From: Scenedesmus sp. PABB004 | Lineage: Eukaryota | Reading direction: 5' to 3' | Assembly: GCA_014905635.1 (NCBI GenBank) | Contig: JABVCE010000039.1 | Coordinates: 186,001-235,151, forward strand | Length of the DNA: 49,151 bases | Part shown: piece after piece, positions 135 to 42,044 of the stretch | Numbering within the stretch: the stretch's first letter is position 1 | Layout of the letters: every line of letters starts with the position of its first letter | The notes under the pieces: model-generated | Told to the model about the DNA's origin: nothing | Databases searched by the model: none | What the model saw: the letters and a program-made list of their open reading frames with translations, nothing else | Made by a program: the position numbers and the translations under genes

Positions 135-1351
135 CACCACCTGCTGGTCGGCTACTGCGACGCGCTGCAGTGGACGCTGGAGCACATGGCGGCGGGCCAG
201 CAGCAGCAGCAGAGCGACGATGACGATGCCAGTTCAGAGCCGTGCGTCGACCGCGCGCGCAGCAGCACCAGCCGCAGCGGCAGCAGCGGTCGGGCGGCGC
301 CCAGCGAGTGCCAGGTGGCGCTGCTGGAGCAGCTGGTGCGGCTGCCGTACAGCGCGGCGCCGCCAGGGGCGCTGGCAGGGCACGGCAGCGCCTGCGCGCC
401 CGGCGGCGCCGCGTGCGCGCCCGGCAGCGAATACGAGCCGGGCGCGGCGGCAGACGACCGCGTCGCGCCGCGGCACGACCCGTTTTGCTGGTGGCGGTGG
501 TTGCTGGTGCAGCCGCCTTTTCCAAACATCGACACGCTGACCCTGGAGGGCGCGTGCGCCGCCATGGATGAGGTGCGTGGCTGCCGTGGGGCGTGGCCGG
601 GCGCCGGGTGCCGGCAAGCGCCGCAGCCGCGTCGCCGTGTGCCCGACGGCGGCCGCCGCCGCTGCGTCGCAGGTCGTGCAAGAGCTGGCCCTGAGCCTGG
701 TGCTGCTGGACGGGCCGTGCAGCGGCGAGCTGGCGCCACTGAGCCGCCTCAAGGCCGCGCTTTGCAGGGCCATGTACCTGTTGATGAGCGCAACACTCTC
801 CAAGCGCAACGAGCTCTTGACTGAGCTCTGCCTCACCAACCGCGCGACGGGCGAGCAGGCCACAGAGCACGACCTCGCGCGCTACAAGGCGGTGGTGCTG
901 GGCGTGCGCCTGAGCCGCGACCAGGTCGCCGACATGCTGGCCGGCCTGGCTGCGTTCAACCGCCTGCACGCGCCGCTGCTGGAGCAGGTGCGCCGCCAGC
1001 GGGCGGGCGGCTCTGCCCGCTGTGAGCGCGCCGCCTCTCATCCTCGCGCGCTGCCGCCGCCTGCAGGTGCGCGAGCTGCAGACGCAGCTGGCAGCCGGCG
1101 GCCACGACGGCGCGCGCAGCAGCATGCTGCAGCACCTGGAGCGCACGACGGCGGAGAGCGCCAAGCTCGACCGCCTGGCACTTCTGTCGAGCAAGTGCGG
1201 GCTGCTGCGCGGCATGCTTGGCGTCACCTTGTACGGCGCGCTCACGTGGCGCCAGCTGGCGCGAGTAGCGGTGCTCAGCAGCCCATTCACACCTGCGGCG
1301 CCCGTGCTGGCGCAGGCGGTGGCCGCGTTGGCGCGCGAGGGCGCGCTGTGA
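135..1351 (+). CDS. bZIP/DOG1-like algal protein, copy 1 (5' exon outside window; exons 135-572, 673-987, 1067-1351)
   Basis: Spliced translation HHLLVGYCDALQW...HDPF...NRATGEQATEH...LTWRQLARVAVLSSPF is colinear with the paralog at 15517-17315. Introns 573-672 and 988-1066 are GT..AG. The C-terminal LTxxQxAR motif resembles the TGA/DOG1 region; the family label is inference. Confidence 0.7.
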
Positions 1352-28427: not shown

Positions 28428-29737
28428 GCAGCGCCGCCGCCGCGCCGCTGGCGGAGCGGCAGGCGGCGCACGAGGAGCTGTTCGGGCGGCCGTGCCGCTG
28501 CGCGCGCTGCGTGCTCGAGGCCGCGCTGACCGAGGAGGCGCGCGCAGCGGTCGCGTCGGTGCATGCGCACGCGGCGGGCGAGTGGCAGGACCGGCTGCAG
28601 GCTGCGCTGGAGGGCGCGCCGGACGCCGACGGCGAGGCGACGGCGGAGCTGCTCTCCGAGCTTCAGGTCGGCGCGTGGCGCGGCGCGGCGCCGCGCCGCG
28701 CGGCGCAGGGCGCGGTCGCTCGCCGCGTGCCGCCGCGGCTGCAACGCCGCCTGCCGCCGCCGCCGGCTCACCCCACGCAGGCCGAGGTGGACAGCGCGCT
28801 GGAGGCGCTGGACGCCGCGCTCGCGCCGGGCGCGCGGCGCCGCGACGACCGGCTGGCGCTCGCGGCGGGCGCGTACGGCGCCTACGACCTGGCGTGGCAG
28901 ATGGAGGAGCTGCTGGCGGAGGAGCCCGACCTCGCCAAGCTCGCGTCCTGCGTCGCGCTGCTGCGGGTGCGGCCGCGCGCGCGCGCGCGCGCGTGCGGCG
29001 GTGCATGGCCACACGCCGGCCGCCTGCCAGACACCCCCCGGCGCGCGCGTGCACCGCCGGCCGCGCGCAGGTGTTTGCGCGCGGCAGCGAGAGCCACGTC
29101 TACAGCGCGCTGCTGCTGGACCAGGCCCACACCGCGCGCGCCGAGGCGCTCACCGCCGAGGCGGGCGGCGGCGTGTCGCGCAAGAGCCTCGCGCGGCAGC
29201 GCCGCCTCACCGCGCGCATCCAGCAGCTGCTCGCGGGCGCCGAGGCGGCGGCGTACGCGTACGCCGAGGCGGTGTCGTGCCGCTACGGCCTGCTGCCGCA
29301 GGACGGCGAGGACGGCCTCGCCCCCCGCCTCGCGCAGGGCCTCGCCCTCTTCTACGCCGGCATGAGCGCGCTCAGCGCGGCGGCCGGCGACGCCGGCGGC
29401 GGCGGGGTGCGTGCGCCGCCTGCGCGCGTGGCGCGCGCCGCCGGCCCGCGCGCGCGCCGCGCGCGCCGCGCGCGCCGCGCCGCGCCGCCGAGCCGCCGCC
29501 GCCGCCGGCGTCCGCGCGGCGCAGGTGCCCGAGCTGACGCGGGAGCTGGAGATCGAGGGCATCCCCGTGACCGTGGTGGACACGGTGGAGGGCGCGGCGT
29601 TTGCGCCTGGCGGCGGCGCGGCCGGCCCCGGCGGCGAGCGGCTGACGGTCGACTGGGTGGAGGCGGGCCCAGAGGACGACAGGCGCCAGCAGCGCGGCGG
29701 CGGGGGCGCGCCGGAGGAGCTGAGCGCGGCGGGGTAG
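26994..29737 (+). CDS. SET-domain protein (SMYD/ATXR-like, degenerate active site), probable organellar transit peptide; multi-exon
   Basis: YVGPIQLK..GVVASEEVSGAELL, GVWPELALLRHSCVPNA, LHATEDLPAGAEVTFNK, post-SET PCRCARC, helical C-terminus. Arg/Ala-rich N-terminus. Confidence 0.75.
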
Positions 29738-29893
29738 GGAGCTTGCTGGTCCTGGAGGCGGCGCTGGAGGCGGCGCAGCGGCCGCGCAGCGGCGGCCGGT
29801 GCCGGCCGAACTCCCTCAACAGCCCGGCCGGCGGCCCAGCAGCTGCCCGGGGAGGCCGCGAGTGCGTGTGCAGCCCCGGCGAGGCCAGCCAGA

Positions 29894-31585
29894 GAAGAAG
29901 GGCGTTACCAGGGGTGAACAAGCGCCTACGGCGCAAACACGGACCCCATCACTTTGGTATAGTCAGTCACTCACGCGCAGCTGCCGCCCGTGGCCACGCT
30001 CACGCCCAAAAGCGTCGCCTGCACACGCTCAGTGCTGTCTCCGCACACGCACCTTGACCGATCGCTCGCTGCTGGGCAGTAGCAGTATTTCAGTGTCGGC
30101 AGCAGCCGGTGACCGCAGGTCGCGCGTGCCCGCGAGCGCGCAACCCGCGCGCGCGGGAGTGCTGGGAGAATGCCACCATCCTCATCGCCGAATAACAACC
30201 AAGCCACTCCCCGCGACGCGGGGAGTGCACCAAGCCAGAAAGGGCTGGCAGGGTGCGAAGAAGGGCGTTACCAGGGGTGAACAAGCGCCTACGGCGCAAA
30301 CACGGACCCCATCACTTTGGTATAGTCAGTCACTCACGCGCAGCTGCCGCCCGTGGCCACGCTCACGCCCAAAAGCGTCGCCTGCACACGCTCAGTGCTG
30401 TCTCCGCACACGCACCTTGACCGATCGCTCGCTGCTGGGCAGTAGCAGTATTTCAGTGTCGGCAGCAGCCGGTGACCGCAGGTCGCGCGTGCCCGCGAGC
30501 GCGCAACCCGCGCGCGCGGGAGTGCTGGGAGAATGCCACCATCCTCATCGCCGAATAACAACCAAGCCACTCCCCGCGACGCGGGGAGTGCACCAAGCCA
30601 GAAAGGGCTGGCAGGGTGCGAAGAAGGGCGTTACCAGGGGTGAACAAGCGCCTACGGCGCAAACACGGACCCCATCACTTTGGTATAGTCAGTCACTCAC
30701 GCGCAGCTGCCGCCCGTGGCCACGCTCACGCCCAAAAGCGTCACCTGCACACACTCAGTGCTGTCTCCGCGCACAGGCTGGCAGGGTGCAAAAGAAGAAG
30801 AAGGGCGTTACCAGGGGTGAACAAGCGCCTACGGCGCAAACACGGACCCCATCACTTTGGTATAGTCAGTCACTCACGCGCAGCTGCCGCCCGTGGCCAC
30901 GCTCACGCCCAAAAGCGTCACCTGCACACACTCAGTGCTGTCTCCGCGCACACACCTTGACCGATCGCTCGCTGCTGGGCAGTAGCAGTATTTCAGTGTC
31001 GGCGGCAGCCGGTGACCGCGGGTCGCGCGTGCCCGCGAGCGCGCAACCCGCGCGCGCGGGAGTGCTGGGAGAATGCCACCATCCTCATCGTCGAATAACA
31101 ACCAAGCCACTCCCCGCGACGCGGGGAGTGCACCAAGCCAGAAAGGGCTGGCCCGTCAGGTCGGGCGTACGGGCAGCGCGGGGCACGTAAGCGGTCGCCG
31201 CAAAGTCGGCCAGCGCCTCCCAAAACGCACTCACTGCCGCCCGCCTGACTATGTCTCGGGCCACGTCAAAGGGCAAGGCACGCTCCCGCACTTGCAGGAA
31301 AATCCAGGCCACGCGCCGGCCGCGTTCGCACGCGTGAATTGCAGCGATGCAGACCATGTCCCAGACCATCTGGGATAGCTGCTCCCGCGGCCGGCACCCC
31401 AGCCAGATGTGCCTGCAGTGCAAGCGCGCGCCGTCCGGCCACCAGTCAAAAGCAGCCAGCTGCTTCTCGATCTCACCCCACACCTCGCCTGCCACCGGGC
31501 ACCGCCAGAAATGGTGCGCCTCGCTCGGGTGCAGCGCGCCGCCCAGTCCGGACGCCTCCGCTGGCTCCGGCGGCTGGCAGGGTGC
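29894..31585 (-). mobile_element. Head-to-tail array of four 5'-truncated L1-like non-LTR retrotransposon copies (A 29894-30242, B 30257-30605, C 30620-30775, D 30790-31571)
   Basis: All copies share one 3' end (minus strand ...CCCCTGGTAACGCCC(TTC)n) and have three different 5' truncation points. Copy D encodes an ORF2 C-terminus (HHFWRCPVA..VW..IWL..VWDMVCIAAI..AVSAFWEALADF..QPFL, stop 31085). The 14-bp GGCTGGCAGGGTGC occurs at 30243, 30606, 30776 and 31572. Confidence 0.88.
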
Positions 31586-31593
31586 GGAGCGAG

Positions 31594-31607
31594 AAAAACA
31601 GCAAAAA
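31594..31607 (-). terminator. RNA polymerase III terminator (two T5 tracts) of tRNA-Tyr
   Basis: AAAAA on + at 31603-31607 and 31594-31598, immediately 3' of the tRNA. Confidence 0.8.
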
Positions 31608-31610
31608 CAG

Positions 31611-31697
31611 TCCTGCCAACCGGATTCGAACCAGTGACCTAGAGATGACAGCTCACACGACTACAGTCTCCCGCTCTACCAACTGAGCTATGGCAGG
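31611..31697 (-). tRNA. trnY-GTA: tRNA-Tyr(GTA) with 14-nt intron (31647-31660)
   Basis: CCTGCCA/TGGCAGG acceptor stem (C1:G72, discriminator A73), D arm GCTC-AGTTGGTA-GAGC, anticodon stem GGAGA/TCTCT with loop CT-GTA-G^A, T arm ACTGG-TTCGAAT-CCGGT. The intron is at the canonical 37/38 position. Confidence 0.97.
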
Positions 31698-31732
31698 TTG
31701 ATATCCCACCAGTGTCCAATGGTTTTTATATA
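31698..31732 (-). promoter_or_regulatory. Plant/algal-type tRNA upstream elements: TATATAAAAA (-35 to -26) and CAA (-3 to -1)
   Basis: + strand TTTTTATATA at 31723-31732 and TTG at 31698-31700. Confidence 0.7.
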
Positions 31733-31869
31733 CAGCAAATGTCAAAGTCACAGATTACGGAAGTACAAACAACAACCCATTTTTCGGGCCGAAATCGCCA
31801 GGCGTACCGATGTGGGACCGGGCCCCGCCGTGTAACCAACGTAACCGTGTAACCAACAACAACATAACA

Positions 31870-33780
31870 CGCAGGTGCCCTGGATCCTGCTCGCTCGCAG
31901 CCACCTCTGGGCGGCGTGCCCCTGGTGGGGCCCGCTGGCGCTGCTGGACTGCGGCCCCGACCAGCGGCCTGTCGGCGATGGCTGGGGCCCGCGCGTGCCG
32001 GCGCCGCCGCCCCCGCTGCGGCGCATGATCGCTGGCCTGGCCGCGCTGGGGCCGGTCATCCAGCTCGAGCCCACCCCTGCGGCTGGGCCCTGGTGCGCCG
32101 ACGTGCCGGTCTTCGGCAACCCTCTGATCCGCGACGTGTACCCCTCGGGGCCGCGCGGCCTGCAGATCAGGCCGGTGCCGGAGGTCGGCGGCCGCCGCGC
32201 AGGCTACGCGCGCACGCTAGTGCGCTCGCTCGGCGACCTCGTGCGTGTGCAGCGCTGGGCGGCTGCCTGGCCGGAGGCGCTGGCCCACGACGCCAACGCG
32301 GAGCGGGCCGAGTGGGCCGACGTCCAGGCGCTGCTGGCTGCGGTGCCTGCGGGGTGGGAGGAGGCGGCGCGCGCTGCGCCCCTGCCGCCGCTGCCTCCGC
32401 GCGGCACGCGCATGATGCCGGCACGCCCGCCAGACCCCGCGGCCCTGTGGGCTGAGGCGGACCTGGTGCCGAGCCTAGGCTGGCGGCTGTACCAAGGGTC
32501 ACGGGCGGTGCCCGTGCTGCTGACCAAGCTCACCGTCAAGCAGGCGACGCTGCTCCAACTCGCCATGCCGGGCGGCGTCGACACGCAGCGGCGCGACAAG
32601 CACGTCGCATTTGCGTGCCTGGCCCTGGGGCTGGCGCCGCCGACGCAGCGCGCGCTGCCCCGGCCGCGGGGCAGCAGCCGGCGGCGGCCCAGCCGGTCCC
32701 GGCGGCGGCCGCGCCGGACCCGGCGGCTGCCGTGGCGGCAGCCGCGGCGGCGGCTCCGCGGCTGCAGCAGCCGCGCTGGCCGGCCTGGACGGGGCCGCCG
32801 TCGACGCCGCGCCTCCCCCGGGAGCTGGCCCTCACCGCGTCGGTCAGGATCGCCCTGCGCAAGCTGTGGCGGCTGCGCTGGGACAACGCGGTGTACTGGC
32901 GGCTCGCGCTCAACGGTCTCGCGACCGCTGAGCGCATGTCCCAGCCCGAGTTTGTCTGCCTCTGCGGCGTCGCCTGCCCCGGCCGCGCGCACCACTACTG
33001 GGAGTGTCCCATCGCGCAGGCAGTGGTGCGAGCCATGCTCGACTCGCTGCCCGCCGAGTGGTGCGCGCGCCCGGCCGATGGCGCGCCACGCCTGCGCCGC
33101 GAGCACGTCTGGCTCATGTTCGCGCCGCCGGCGGCGGCGCGGCGCGCCGGCGCGCGGCGGCTGCATTCGGGCGTGTGGCGCGTGGTGTGCCTGGCCGCGC
33201 TCGCGGCCATGGACACCGGCCGGCGCGCCGCCAACCTCGCGGCCCTCCAGGCCAAGAGGGAGGCGGACGCCCGGACGGCCGCGCATGCCCGGCGTGCTGA
33301 GCGCGCCGCGGCTGCGGGCCAGCGCCTCATCTCCAGCTTGCTGCCCGCTGCGCCTCCCCCCGAGGCGCAGCAGCAGCGACAAGCGGCGGTGGCCGAGCGC
33401 GAGCGCGCGCAGCGGCTGCAGCAGGCCCAGCAAGCGGCGGTGGCGTCGTTCTGGGCCTGGCTGGCAGACTTTGTTGCGTGCCGCGCGGCCCCGCGACAGT
33501 GGTCTGCGCAGGTCCCTGCGCAGCACCCCTTCCTCTGCACCGTGCCGGACGACGCCGACCCACGGGCGGCGCCGCGCATCTGGCTGCAGGCCGGTGCATG
33601 AGGCTCGTTGTGTGTGTGCGGGCGTGTGTGTTTGGTGCTGCCCCGCTGACAGTTCTGTAGGCCGGTGTGTGTGGAGTCCCGGGGCACCGCCGAGATGGGC
33701 GTGCGTGCGACCGGGGTGGGGGGAGAAGGCGGCGTCGGTCGCGGGGGGCGCGCAGTCTCCCGCTCGGTGACACAAGCTTG
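31870..33780 (+). mobile_element. 5'-truncated, frameshifted L1-like retrotransposon (ORF2 C-terminal region with zf-RVT/CCHC knuckle); 3' boundary uncertain
   Basis: GPWCADVPVFGNPLI..LGWRL..LTVKQAT, frameshift near 32650, then LWRLRWDN..YWRLALNG..CLCG..HHYWECPIA..VWL..VWRVVCLAAL..AVASFWAWLADF..HPFL, stop 33601. Homologous at protein level to the minus-strand element; no EN/RT core is present. Confidence 0.82.
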
Positions 33781-36106: not shown

Positions 36107-36468
36107 GGCACGCGCGCAGCGGCCCGCTGACGGCGGCGGCCGTCGGGGCGCACTGCCGGCTGCACCGCCGCCGCCGCGGTAACACCGCCGCGACGCTGGG
36201 CTGCTCTCCCGCTTGATCCCCGATCGCATCGCTGGCACCGCGTCGATCGCGCCAGCGCAGACGGCTTGCCGCGCCGGGAGCAGCATCGCAGGTCGACTGC
36301 GCCTCACCCTCCACCCGCGCTGCCGAGCGCGCGGTCGCGGTCGATCGCTCTCCCGTCACGCGTGGCGGGAGACGCGCCCCCGCGACCAGCAGCTGCCAGG
36401 CCACGCGGGGCGGGCAGGGCGGCCACCTGCTGGCGCGCGCGCCGCCAGGCGCGTAGCGGGCCGGCAGC

Positions 36469-37986
36469 ATGGCGACCCGGTGAGTGCCGCGGCCCCAACG
36501 CCGCCCGGGCGCGCCAGGCGCCGGCGGCGGCCGCGGCGCGGCCCGCGCCGGCGCCGGCGGCCGGTCGCCGCTGCCGCTGTCCATGCGCCGGCGCCGCGGC
36601 GCGCGCCGGCGCCGCGCCGGCGCCGCCGGCCGGGACACGGCCTCGGGCCGGGAGGCAGGCCGGGGGGTGCGCGGCGCGCGCGCTCACGCCGCCGCTGCCG
36701 CGCCGCCGCGCCCGCTTTTGCCGCGCCGCGCGCAGCTGCCAGTTTGAGAACAGCAACGACGTCGGCGTGTTTGCGCAGCTGACCAACGCCTACGCGCTCA
36801 TCGCGCTCGGCGGCGCGGAGAACTTTTACTCCGTGTTTGAGGCCGAGCTGGCCGACCACATCCCGGTCATCAAGACCAGCATCTCGGGTGCGCCGCCGCG
36901 CGGCGCGGTGCTGGCGGCGCCGGCGCGGCGCGGCGTGGCAGGAGCTCGCGTCCACCAGCGCCAGCGCCAGCGCCAGCGCCAGCGCCAGCGCCAGCGCCAG
37001 CAGCCGCAGCTGCTTCGGCGGCCGCGCCCGCCCGCCCGGTGCGCGGGCCGCGCGCCGAAGCCGCGCCTGCCTCACCCTGCGCCGCCGCCGCCAGGCACGC
37101 GCCTGGTCGGTCGCATGACGGTCGGCAACAAGAACGGCCTGCTCGTGCCCAACTCGACGAGCGACCAGGAGCTGCAGCACATCCGCAACTGCCTCCCCGA
37201 CGAGGTCGTCGTGCAGCGCATCGACGAGCGCCTGTCGGCGCTGGGCAACGTGATCGCGTGCAACGACTACGTCGCGCTCATCCACCCAGACATCGACAAG
37301 GAGACGGAGGAGATCGTTCAGGTGCGAGGGAGCGTGGGGTGTGTGTGTTGTGGGCGGGTGTGGGCGGCGTGCGTGCGGGTGTGGGCGGGTGGGTGTGGGG
37401 CGTGTCGGCGTGGGCGGGGACGCATGGCGGAGCACAGGGCGGCGGCAGTCCTGCGGCCGCCGGCCACAGGGCCGCGCCCACCCCGCCCCTCGCCCCGCCT
37501 GCCCCGCCAGGACGTGCTCGGCGTGGACGTGTTCCGCCAGACGGTCGCGGGCAACGTCCTCGTCGGCAGCTACGCCGCGTTCAGCAACCAGGGCGGCCTC
37601 GTGCACCCCAAGACGAGCATAGAGGACCTCGACGAGCTCTCAAGCCTCCTGCAGGCGCGCGCCGCGCCGCGCCGCGCCGCGCCGCGCCGCGCCGCGCGCC
37701 CGCGCCACCGCCGCGATGCGTGCGCGCGCGCTGAGCCCGCCGCCGCGCCGCGCGCCGCGCGCTCCGCGTTGCTGTCCTCCAGGTGCCGCTGGTGGCGGGG
37801 ACGGTCAACCGCGGCAGCGACGTCATCGGCGCGGGGCTGGTGGTCAACGACTGGGCCGCGTTCTGCGGCCTCGACACCACGAGCACCGAGATGAGCGTGC
37901 TGGAGAGCGTGTTCAAGCTCCGCGACGCGCAGCCGGCGGCGATCGTGAACGAGATGCGCGCGAGCCTCATCGACACGATGGTCTGA
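36469..37986 (+). CDS. EIF6: Eukaryotic translation initiation factor 6; 5 exons
   Basis: [88 protein letters not shown]. Confidence 0.97.
36954..37000 (+). repeat. (CAGCGC)n hexanucleotide microsatellite in an eIF6 intron
   Basis: Perfect tandem array visible in the sequence. Confidence 0.9.
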
Positions 37987-41197: not shown

Positions 41198-42044
41198 GAG
41201 CGCGGCGGCGCTGGACGTGGTCGACAGCGCCGACGCGGCGCTGGCGAGCTACACGCTTGTCCGCCCGGGCGGCAGTGGCAGCGGCAGCAGCAGCAGCGGC
41301 AGCAGCAGCGGCGGGAGCAGCAGCAGCAGGAGGAGCAGCAGCAGGAGCAGCGGCAGCAGCAGCAGCGTGCTGGCGGCGCCGCCGGCGCGGCCGGCCGGCG
41401 CCGGCGCGGCCTGGTCGGGCGCGTGGTTTGAGGCCATGGTCCAGGCGGCGGTGCGGCAGCTCGACGGCGCGCCGTTTGTGCTGCGCGTGACGGCGCGGCC
41501 GAGCCTGCAGCTGTCGCTCGTGCGCGTGCCGCCCGCGGAGCTCGCGCGCGGCTGGGAGCACGTGCACGCGACCTACCTCGCGCCCGGCGAGGCGCGGCCG
41601 CACGACGCGCTCGTGCTGGTGCACCTGGTGCCGTCGGAGGCGCAGCCGTGCGTGGTCAGCAGCGTGCGCGGCCGCGCGTGCGACGCGTGCCCGCACGCCG
41701 AGCCGGGCGCGAGCAGCCCGGAGCTGCTGCACGGCCGCTTCGGCGACTGCTGCTCGGGCGAGGCCGGCGCGGCGCACGCCGCGGCGCACGCCGCGGCTGC
41801 CGCCCAGGCAGCCGGCGCGCCCGGCGGGCGGCGCGGGGGCGGCGAGGTGTCGTTCTTTGGGCTCGTCGTGCAGACCGCGGACGGGCGCGACCCCGGGCAG
41901 GGCTGCTACCTGCTCAAGACGACCGCGGCGACGCACGTCAGCGCGGGGGGCGGCGGGTGCAGCTGCACGCACTACAGCCTTACGCGGCTGTGCCAGGGCC
42001 CCTCGCTCGCGCAGCAGTTCCAGGCGGCCTGGCTCGCCAACTGA
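41198..42044 (+). CDS. Conserved green-lineage protein of unknown function (last exon; start not resolved)
   Basis: WF..VRQLDGAPFVL..FFGLVVQ..GCYLLKTT..CSCTHYSL.R..QF.AAWL resembles an uncharacterised plant family (recalled as At2g27830-like). Acceptor AG at 41196-41197. Confidence 0.7.

Follow-up and report, generated by a model that had tools for sequence, protein, structure and literature searches.

Locus organisation

We analysed a 49,151-nt stretch of the genome of the green alga Scenedesmus sp. PABB004 (contig JABVCE010000039.1, positions 186,001 to 235,151), referred to below as the window, whose own numbering is used throughout. In it, an intact-looking tRNA-Tyr(GTA) gene on the minus strand is bracketed by two L1-like long interspersed nuclear elements (LINEs) of diverged families, both 5'-truncated and both with their 5' ends toward this tRNA. 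The copy upstream of the tRNA gene lies on the plus strand and is called the plus family here; the downstream one is an array on the minus strand and is called the minus family. The features of the locus are as follows.

31875-33750, plus strand: 5'-truncated, dead L1-like LINE copy of the plus family (tblastn with 29 long relatives, junction 5-mers, metagenome contigs)
31875 to about 32659, plus strand: plus-family region of open reading frame (ORF) 2 behind the reverse transcriptase (RT), frame A (colinear with full-length relatives)
About 32657-32660, plus strand: 1-nt frameshift in a C-run of the plus-family copy (read through by paralogous proteins)
32798-33598, plus strand: plus-family Cys/His tail (stop codon at 33599-33601)
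Up to about 33750, plus strand: plus-family 3' untranslated region (UTR; other copies cease to match there)
31870-31874, no strand: candidate target-site duplication CGCAG, 5' copy (at the inferred 5' junction)
33751-33755, no strand: candidate target-site duplication CGCAG, 3' copy (at the inferred 3' junction)
31698-31869, minus strand: upstream spacer of the tRNA gene, outside the element (48% GC; matched by none of the 29 LINE proteins in tblastn)
31723-31732, minus strand: TATATAAAAA, TATA element at positions -35 to -26 of tRNA-Tyr, intact
31698-31700, minus strand: CAA at positions -3 to -1 of tRNA-Tyr, intact
31610-31697, minus strand: tRNA-Tyr(GTA) gene with a 14-nt intron at 37/38 (Rfam tRNA, 59.7 bits; ARAGORN cloverleaf)
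31594-31607, minus strand: two T5 runs behind tRNA-Tyr (31603-31607 and 31594-31598), read as putative RNA polymerase III (Pol III) terminators
30808-31572, minus strand: minus-family copy 1, consisting of the ORF2 tail (31572-31088) and the 3' UTR (tblastn; 5' truncation exactly at 31572)
29905-30807, minus strand: three further head-to-tail 3' pieces of the minus family (30631-30775, 30268-30605 and 29905-30242; TRF and junction map)

The original prediction, made from the letters of the window, had assigned 31698-33780 to a C-terminal ORF2 remnant that starts about 170 nt upstream of the tRNA and leaves its TATA/CAA promoter intact. It further held that the remnant shares protein motifs with a second, diverged L1-like family downstream, that both turn their 5' ends toward the same tRNA, and that they are the only transposons in 49 kb and bracket its only tRNA. 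The remnant itself was recovered by tblastn with the 29 relatives and the other points were borne out, the distance being 173 nt. The borders had to be corrected: the element occupies 31875-33750, and 31698-31869 is spacer.

Identity of the upstream copy

The peptide encoded by 32798-33598 has 727 relatives at E≤0.001 and 19 at E≤1e-30 among the 1.84 billion representatives searched. In tblastn, the 29 relatives of at least 800 aa match the window solely at 31860-33595 on the plus strand and 31088-31567 on the minus strand, and the plus-strand match runs colinearly with the post-RT part of ORF2 and the C-terminal end of full-length relatives. When 14 relatives were scanned against Pfam, RVT_1 was present in all 11 long ones (968-1692 aa) and the apurinic/apyrimidinic endonuclease (APE) domain Exo_endo_phos in eight of these, and the three short ones had no Pfam match. 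The family zf-RVT reached 21 bits (cut-off 27.5) in one of the 11 long relatives, at the region where the window peptide aligns; the three window peptides had no Pfam family at threshold, zf-RVT included. The motif C..C...HH..W.C is invariant in an alignment of 21 sequences, and Gly takes the place of its two leading Cys in the tail of the minus family.

For the full-length relative P0053, the nearest solved structure was human LINE-1 ORF2p (PDB 8sxt and others; E 1.2e-35 over the RT region), and the full-length relative has the same order of APE, RT and Cys-rich C-terminus. Human LINE-1, unlike the copies described here, has a poly(A) tail; it shows no preference for Pol III genes. The algal tails stay below the Pfam threshold for zf-RVT. 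APE and RT were found in full-length relatives; the truncated window copy itself has neither domain. Hallmarks of target-primed reverse transcription were present in the form of variable 5' truncation, multiple copies, a candidate 5-bp duplication and, for the downstream family, an empty site. By these sequence comparisons, the plus-strand element is the remnant of an L1-like (APE-type) LINE ORF2.

LINE homology of the plus-family copy begins at 31866 in the protein alignment. Contigs of other plus-family copies, found in three metagenome runs, match up to about 33750 and then continue with different sequence. The 5-mer CGCAG, one of just two that are common to both junction zones, sits at both inferred junctions. 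We therefore placed the element at 31875-33750, with its insertion point 173 nt upstream of tRNA-Tyr and its 5' end turned toward the tRNA's 5' end.

Between the frameshift and the Cys/His tail, the copy contains an Ala/Pro-rich stretch, and 9 nt that follow position 32889 in the other copies (metagenome contigs) are missing from it. Lacking everything 5' of the post-RT region, frameshifted and carrying the 9-nt deletion, the copy is dead. The nearest named proteins come from Scenedesmus sp. PABB004 itself, where at least five gene models annotated as 'hypothetical protein [Scenedesmus sp. PABB004]' are near-identical paralogs with differing start points. Other copies in the metagenome contigs were about 97% alike for the plus family and 99.6% for the minus family. 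No poly(A) or A run was present at 33750 (plus family) or at 29905 (minus family); a poly(A) tail is not universal among L1-like LINEs.

The tRNA-Tyr gene

ARAGORN and Rfam agree on a canonical cloverleaf for tRNA-Tyr(GTA). Since Pol III is established to terminate at T runs, the two T5 runs behind the gene were read as its terminators. The gene with its flanks (31570-31870) is the largest patch of the window with at most 55% GC per 100 nt, the inserted array apart, and four of the eight A5/T5 runs of the whole window fall within it.

By ARAGORN and Rfam, this gene is the sole credible tRNA of the 49-kb window. A second ARAGORN call, tRNA-Arg(gcg) at 41645-41736 (81.5% GC), was rejected on account of its length (92 nt), its aberrant structure and its lack of an Rfam match; DNA this rich in GC has probably produced a false positive.

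The downstream array

The minus family forms an array (29905-31572) of four head-to-tail 3' pieces with three different 5' break points, two units having one break point in common. On the sense strand, one 14-mer, GCACCCTGCCAGCC, stands before each of the pieces. Across 29905-31585, it recurs at every unit junction together with a (TTC)n-like stretch whose length varies. What TRF reports as a 363/177-bp tandem repeat is this head-to-tail array, which looks like the product of RT template jumping or repeated re-insertion and not like plain satellite DNA.

Contigs in three of the four metagenome runs match copy 1 to exactly 31572 and then diverge, the best of them with three differences in 776 nt. 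Because these contigs run on past 31572, this position is the 5' truncation point and a longer copy, 99.6% alike, exists. In the window, copy 1 has the same orientation as tRNA-Tyr and lies about 38-39 nt from it.

One explanation for this array alone is that such lineages insert in or beside their own older copies, so that just the first arrival needs explaining. The four head-to-tail pieces with three 5' break points, each following the same 14-mer, would fit such self-targeting. Similar stacking was seen in relatives: the metagenome locus L066 (203-2199), of the lineage closest to the minus family, holds two head-to-tail 5'-truncated copies that are 73-78% alike with a period of 1208, and L065 has a 156-nt 3' tandem repeat, which suggests that copy stacking is a habit of that lineage. 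However, the common break point of two units fits template jumping or later duplication equally well, and self-targeting leaves unexplained both the upstream plus-family copy and a tRNA-associated relative described below (L041). As an account of the array, we consider self-targeting unlikely when taken singly; self-targeting or template jumping, for the downstream array alone, is the likely origin.

An empty site in a close relative

A 281-nt contig of depth 11 from metagenome run X1 links 29707-29890 to the 3' part of the tRNA-Tyr gene (31615-31684) and skips 29891-31614, with 28 nt between the joined parts that include a T5 run. Compared with the window, its flank has three differences and one gap (98% alike) and its tRNA part has one difference. 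The evidence is a single contig in one of four runs, from a close relative that is not identical to the window. Since this contig represents the locus free of the array, tRNA-Tyr was already in place when the array inserted, which happened recently. For the upstream element, no contig bridging an empty site was among the matches listed from the four metagenome runs, in which 31698-31854 had no contig cover.

In the empty site, the insertion point of the minus family lies 12-16 nt behind tRNA-Tyr, directly after the T run, and it directly follows TTTTTGTT. The flank at this point, CGCCCTTCT, repeats a motif near the 3' end of the element that is present at every unit junction, and this likeness suggests priming by base pairing. 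In the X1 contig, the last bases of the 3' strand of the tRNA acceptor (equivalent to 31611-31615) and the trailer differ, and the contig ends inside the tRNA; the tRNA-Tyr of the relative may carry compensating changes or damage.

The empty site bears on the question of whether the element itself brought the tRNA as a chimera made by template switching, comparable to U6-L1 chimeras. The tRNA and the downstream copy have the same orientation and are only 38 nt apart, as such a chimera would have them. We rejected this origin, however, because in the relative the tRNA is already in place here and the element is absent; in addition, the tRNA keeps its intron, its upstream TATA and CAA and its terminators. 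The related idea that the ORF pieces are exons of host genes is contradicted by their multi-copy state, by paralogs truncated at different points and by the frameshift in the window copy. Chimera and host exons alike are barely credible.

Relation between the two families

The protein tails of the plus and minus families are 37% identical over 103 aa (E 2e-10), and their nearest relatives differ, being L065, L066 and L067 (46-53%) for the minus family and P0002 and P0004 for the plus family. In a tree of 175 sequences (90 columns, midpoint root), the two families fall on opposite sides of the root: the minus family belongs to a 26-leaf clade together with L041 (support 0.877), and the plus family to a separate 20-leaf clade. 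Because the array is absent from the locus of the close relative and the nearest relatives differ, the data support two independent insertions of different lineages at different times.

tRNA genes in the flanks of relatives

A metagenome scan gave 198 confirmed relatives, of which 79 loci were kept with flanks (366,672 nt in total). These 79 loci contained one tRNA, in L041, found by ARAGORN and again by Rfam at gathering thresholds. At the same thresholds, the only other Rfam match was the 3' end of a large-subunit (LSU) rRNA in L070, and no 5S, U6 or 7SL was found in these loci. The features of L041 are as follows.

694-764, minus strand: tRNA-Gly(GCC) of L041 (ARAGORN and Rfam)
Start at 875-893, plus strand: 5'-truncated relative in L041 (homology to LINE)

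In L041, at most 111-129 nt separate the tRNA's 5' end from that of the element, in the divergent layout also seen in the window. An equal distance of about 160 nt in both loci was considered and rejected, as the homology in L041 reaches back to 875-893. Of the 79 loci, 44 extend at least 130 nt 5' of the ORF2 homology. Placed at random in the 212 kb of non-element DNA, one tRNA would lie within 130 nt of such a border with a probability of 0.027, or 0.013 if orientation is included; both values are rough, since in full-length copies the border of ORF2 is not the end of the element. The element 5' end faced the tRNA 5' end in both upstream cases (window and L041), a small sample in which the second case had a chance of 0.5 of agreeing. 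Of the truncated copies in the plus-family and minus-family clades, L041 alone has a usable 5' flank.

Smaller sets gave no further case. Among viral contigs, 45 pattern matches included no relative; two contigs of metagenome-assembled genomes had relatives and no tRNA, too few to count; and at 15 loci with short 5' flanks, permissive Rfam searches found no partial tRNAs at the contig ends (the only matches, sub-threshold ones to isrG and miRNA, were taken as noise).

In L070, the relative (coordinates 26-632 / 2492-2970) lies 1.9 kb from the 3' end of the eukaryotic LSU rRNA in convergent orientation. It is possibly an insertion in a ribosomal DNA spacer, which would be another 'safe' site.

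Interpretation of the double insertion

Our preferred reading is that some chlorophyte L1-like lineages have a real insertion preference for the flanks of Pol III genes. The insertions themselves are shown by the data. An L1-like LINE encoding an AP endonuclease, an RT and a Cys/His tail inserted by target-primed reverse transcription 173 nt upstream of a working-looking tRNA-Tyr gene, leaving its Pol III promoter elements untouched. This plus-family copy was 5'-truncated on insertion and acquired its frameshift and 9-nt deletion afterwards. Later, an only distantly related L1-like lineage inserted 12-39 nt behind the tRNA-Tyr terminator as a head-to-tail array, which is polymorphic against a close relative. 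Both insertions spare the Pol III promoter and terminators. The cause of the proposed preference may be tethering to the TFIIIB/TFIIIC/Pol III complex or the DNA accessibility that this complex creates, and the flanks of tRNA genes would then be harmless landing sites in a compact, repeat-poor genome. Such a preference would be lineage-limited or loose and nearer to that of Ty1 than to that of TRE5.

We put this preference forward tentatively, at slightly less than an even chance. In its favour, two independent L1-like insertions bracket the sole credible tRNA, no further transposon was found in 49 kb, and L041 is an independent replicate with the same side and orientation. Several points weigh against it. 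The replicate is a single one, the window was picked after the fact, and no known mode of fixed-distance targeting matches 173 nt. By chance, a doubly hit tRNA spacer would be expected in about one of 10 genomes, or about one of 100 if both hits are closer than 200 nt, in a rough estimate that uses guessed values of about 300 transposon fragments and about 80 tRNAs in a 40-Mb genome. Moreover, no tRNA lies in the 5' flank of 43 of the 44 metagenome loci that extend 130 nt or more 5' of the ORF2 homology, and about 10 truncated copies of one related family (L037, L045-L053 and L069) have 4.5-10 kb of tRNA-free 5' flank; these copies fall outside the plus-family and minus-family clades.

Because 43 of 44 loci have no tRNA in the 5' flank, the clade as a whole is not tRNA-specific. 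The divergence of the two families in the original prediction was borne out by the tree. Its proposal that the pair uses upstream and downstream tRNA niches in the manner of TRE5/TRE3, as a safe-harbour strategy in a gene-dense genome, would amount to a family-wide preference and has L041 as its one independent replicate.

The same locus could have arisen by chance followed by purifying selection, if insertion is random and survivors persist only in the few intergenic stretches that tolerate them, the stretch with the tRNA having received two. Before the insertions, the intergenic stretch holding tRNA-Tyr measured only about 1.3 kb, and the window around it is gene-dense. Among its 267 stop-to-stop ORFs of at least 120 aa, 116 were scanned against Pfam, longest first and excluding those that overlap the LINE locus. 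Ten ORFs matched nine host-gene families and none of the 116 matched a transposon family; the 29 LINE proteins likewise had no match in the window outside the two L1-like sites (tblastn). Most relatives are without a tRNA link, the L070 relative near LSU rRNA would mark another tolerant place, and the selection of the window after the fact suits this explanation too. On the other side stand the L041 replicate with its matching side and orientation (rough p of 0.013-0.027), the closeness of the downstream insertion to the tRNA end (12-39 nt), and the origin of the hits from different lineages at different times. We regard chance with selection as a serious rival, though a less likely one than the preference.

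A preference of the endonuclease or of the priming step for sequence or composition might also have led both families to this tRNA gene without any recognition of Pol III, as AT-rich and T-run DNA would be nearly confined to tRNA flanks in a genome of 78% GC. The low-GC patch at 31570-31870 with its share of the A5/T5 runs would be the expected target, and at the downstream site the insertion point directly behind TTTTTGTT and the flank CGCCCTTCT, with its likeness to the 3' region of the element, point the same way. However, three plus-family copies (window, X1 and X2) are followed at their 3' ends by DNA that is neither AT-rich nor T-rich, and the L041 spacer has 56.5% GC in a contig of 64% GC. 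This explanation appears rather improbable to us.

In a stronger form of the preferred reading, integration directed to Pol III genes would have arisen by convergence in some chlorophyte L1-like lineages, which would still be active. We consider this form unlikely, with its activity suggested by the insertion being polymorphic and the copies 99.6% alike. It would comprise two modes, one about 110-175 nt upstream and head to head with the tRNA, as in TRE5-A, and one directly behind the Pol III terminator.

Other features of the window

The GC content is about 78% throughout the window. A gene for eIF-6 at 36131-37891, belonging to one of the nine host-gene families, can be read in three pieces within a single long open frame; this implies introns that stay open in frame in such GC-rich DNA. 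Long spurious ORFs occur across the window in all six frames. For the whole genome of Scenedesmus sp. PABB004, an extract of a published report gives 39.8 Mb, 7,092 genes, 78.5% GC and 1.31% repeats (PMC12571836).

Comparison with known tRNA-associated elements

The closest parallel to the upstream insertion is TRE5-A (DRE) of Dictyostelium discoideum, which, according to an extract of PMC3159450, inserts about 50 bp upstream from tRNA genes, its own 5' end turned toward the tRNA's 5' end, and is often 5'-deleted. TRE5-A resembles the elements described here in being a non-LTR (long terminal repeat) retrotransposon with APE, RT and a zinc-finger tail; here APE and RT occur only in the relatives, and the Cys/His tail is a candidate counterpart of the zinc finger. 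The side and the orientation of its insertions are those of the plus-family copy in the window and of L041. It is strictly tRNA-associated, and its distance of about 50 bp is shorter than the 173 nt measured in the window and differs from the upper limit of 111-129 nt in L041. Contact of ORF1 with TFIIIB is a feature of TRE5-A, and the window copy is without poly(A).

For the downstream insertion, the dictyostelid elements TRE3 and Skipper-2 offer a comparison. TRE3 inserts about 100 bp downstream of tRNA genes, and 13% of the D. discoideum tRNA genes have both an upstream and a downstream element (extract of PMC5006619). The likeness lies in the insertion downstream of a tRNA and in the pair of upstream and downstream elements. 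The distances differ, being about 100 bp for TRE3 and 7-136 bp for Skipper-2, and here 12-16 nt in the empty site and 39 nt in the window; moreover, the insert described here is a head-to-tail array directly after the T run. The same paper describes for Ty1 a loose window of up to about 750 bp upstream from tRNA genes, set by nucleosomes and Pol III subunits (PMC5006619). The 173-nt distance fits the window of this Saccharomyces cerevisiae element better than a fixed-distance mode. Ty1, however, is an LTR element that uses an integrase and thus another integration chemistry. By analogy, the locus may work like the TRE5, TRE3 and Ty1 systems, but we do not count it among them.

Green algae have L1-like LINEs with targeted accumulation, namely Zepp and the Zepp-like elements of Chlorella, Coccomyxa and Chlamydomonas, which form clusters of stacked, 5'-truncated copies. 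These clusters lie at centromeres or telomeres, and the elements have poly(A) ends. We know of no link between Zepp or Zepp-like LINEs and tRNA genes.

Full-text searches, which do not cover subscription journals, found no account linking LINEs to tRNA genes in green algae. The full-text literature searched likewise held no case of tRNA-gene safe-harbour targeting in green algae or plants, and the extracts of an Auxenochlorella paper and of a review of tRNA repertoires hold nothing on transposons aimed at algal tRNA genes.

Significance

Safe-harbour targeting of tRNA genes has been described, in the extracts of the literature covered here, from budding yeast and from dictyostelid amoebae, and in every case the genome is compact. 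Should only chance or selection lie behind the link between the two LINE insertions and tRNA-Tyr, the locus would hold no more than two ordinary dead LINE copies. As it stands, it is a documented dead LINE pair with a suggestive hint of a third independent origin of tRNA targeting. If the link reflects real targeting, no earlier case of a non-LTR retrotransposon that targets tRNA genes would be known from the green lineage, and these elements would be the first. They would represent a third independent origin of such targeting, in a green alga with a repeat-poor genome of 40 Mb and 78% GC, and would strengthen the case for genome compaction as its driver. They would also provide a new system for studying how the Pol III machinery is read by an L1-type element, and could point to natural safe-harbour sites for transgenes in production microalgae.

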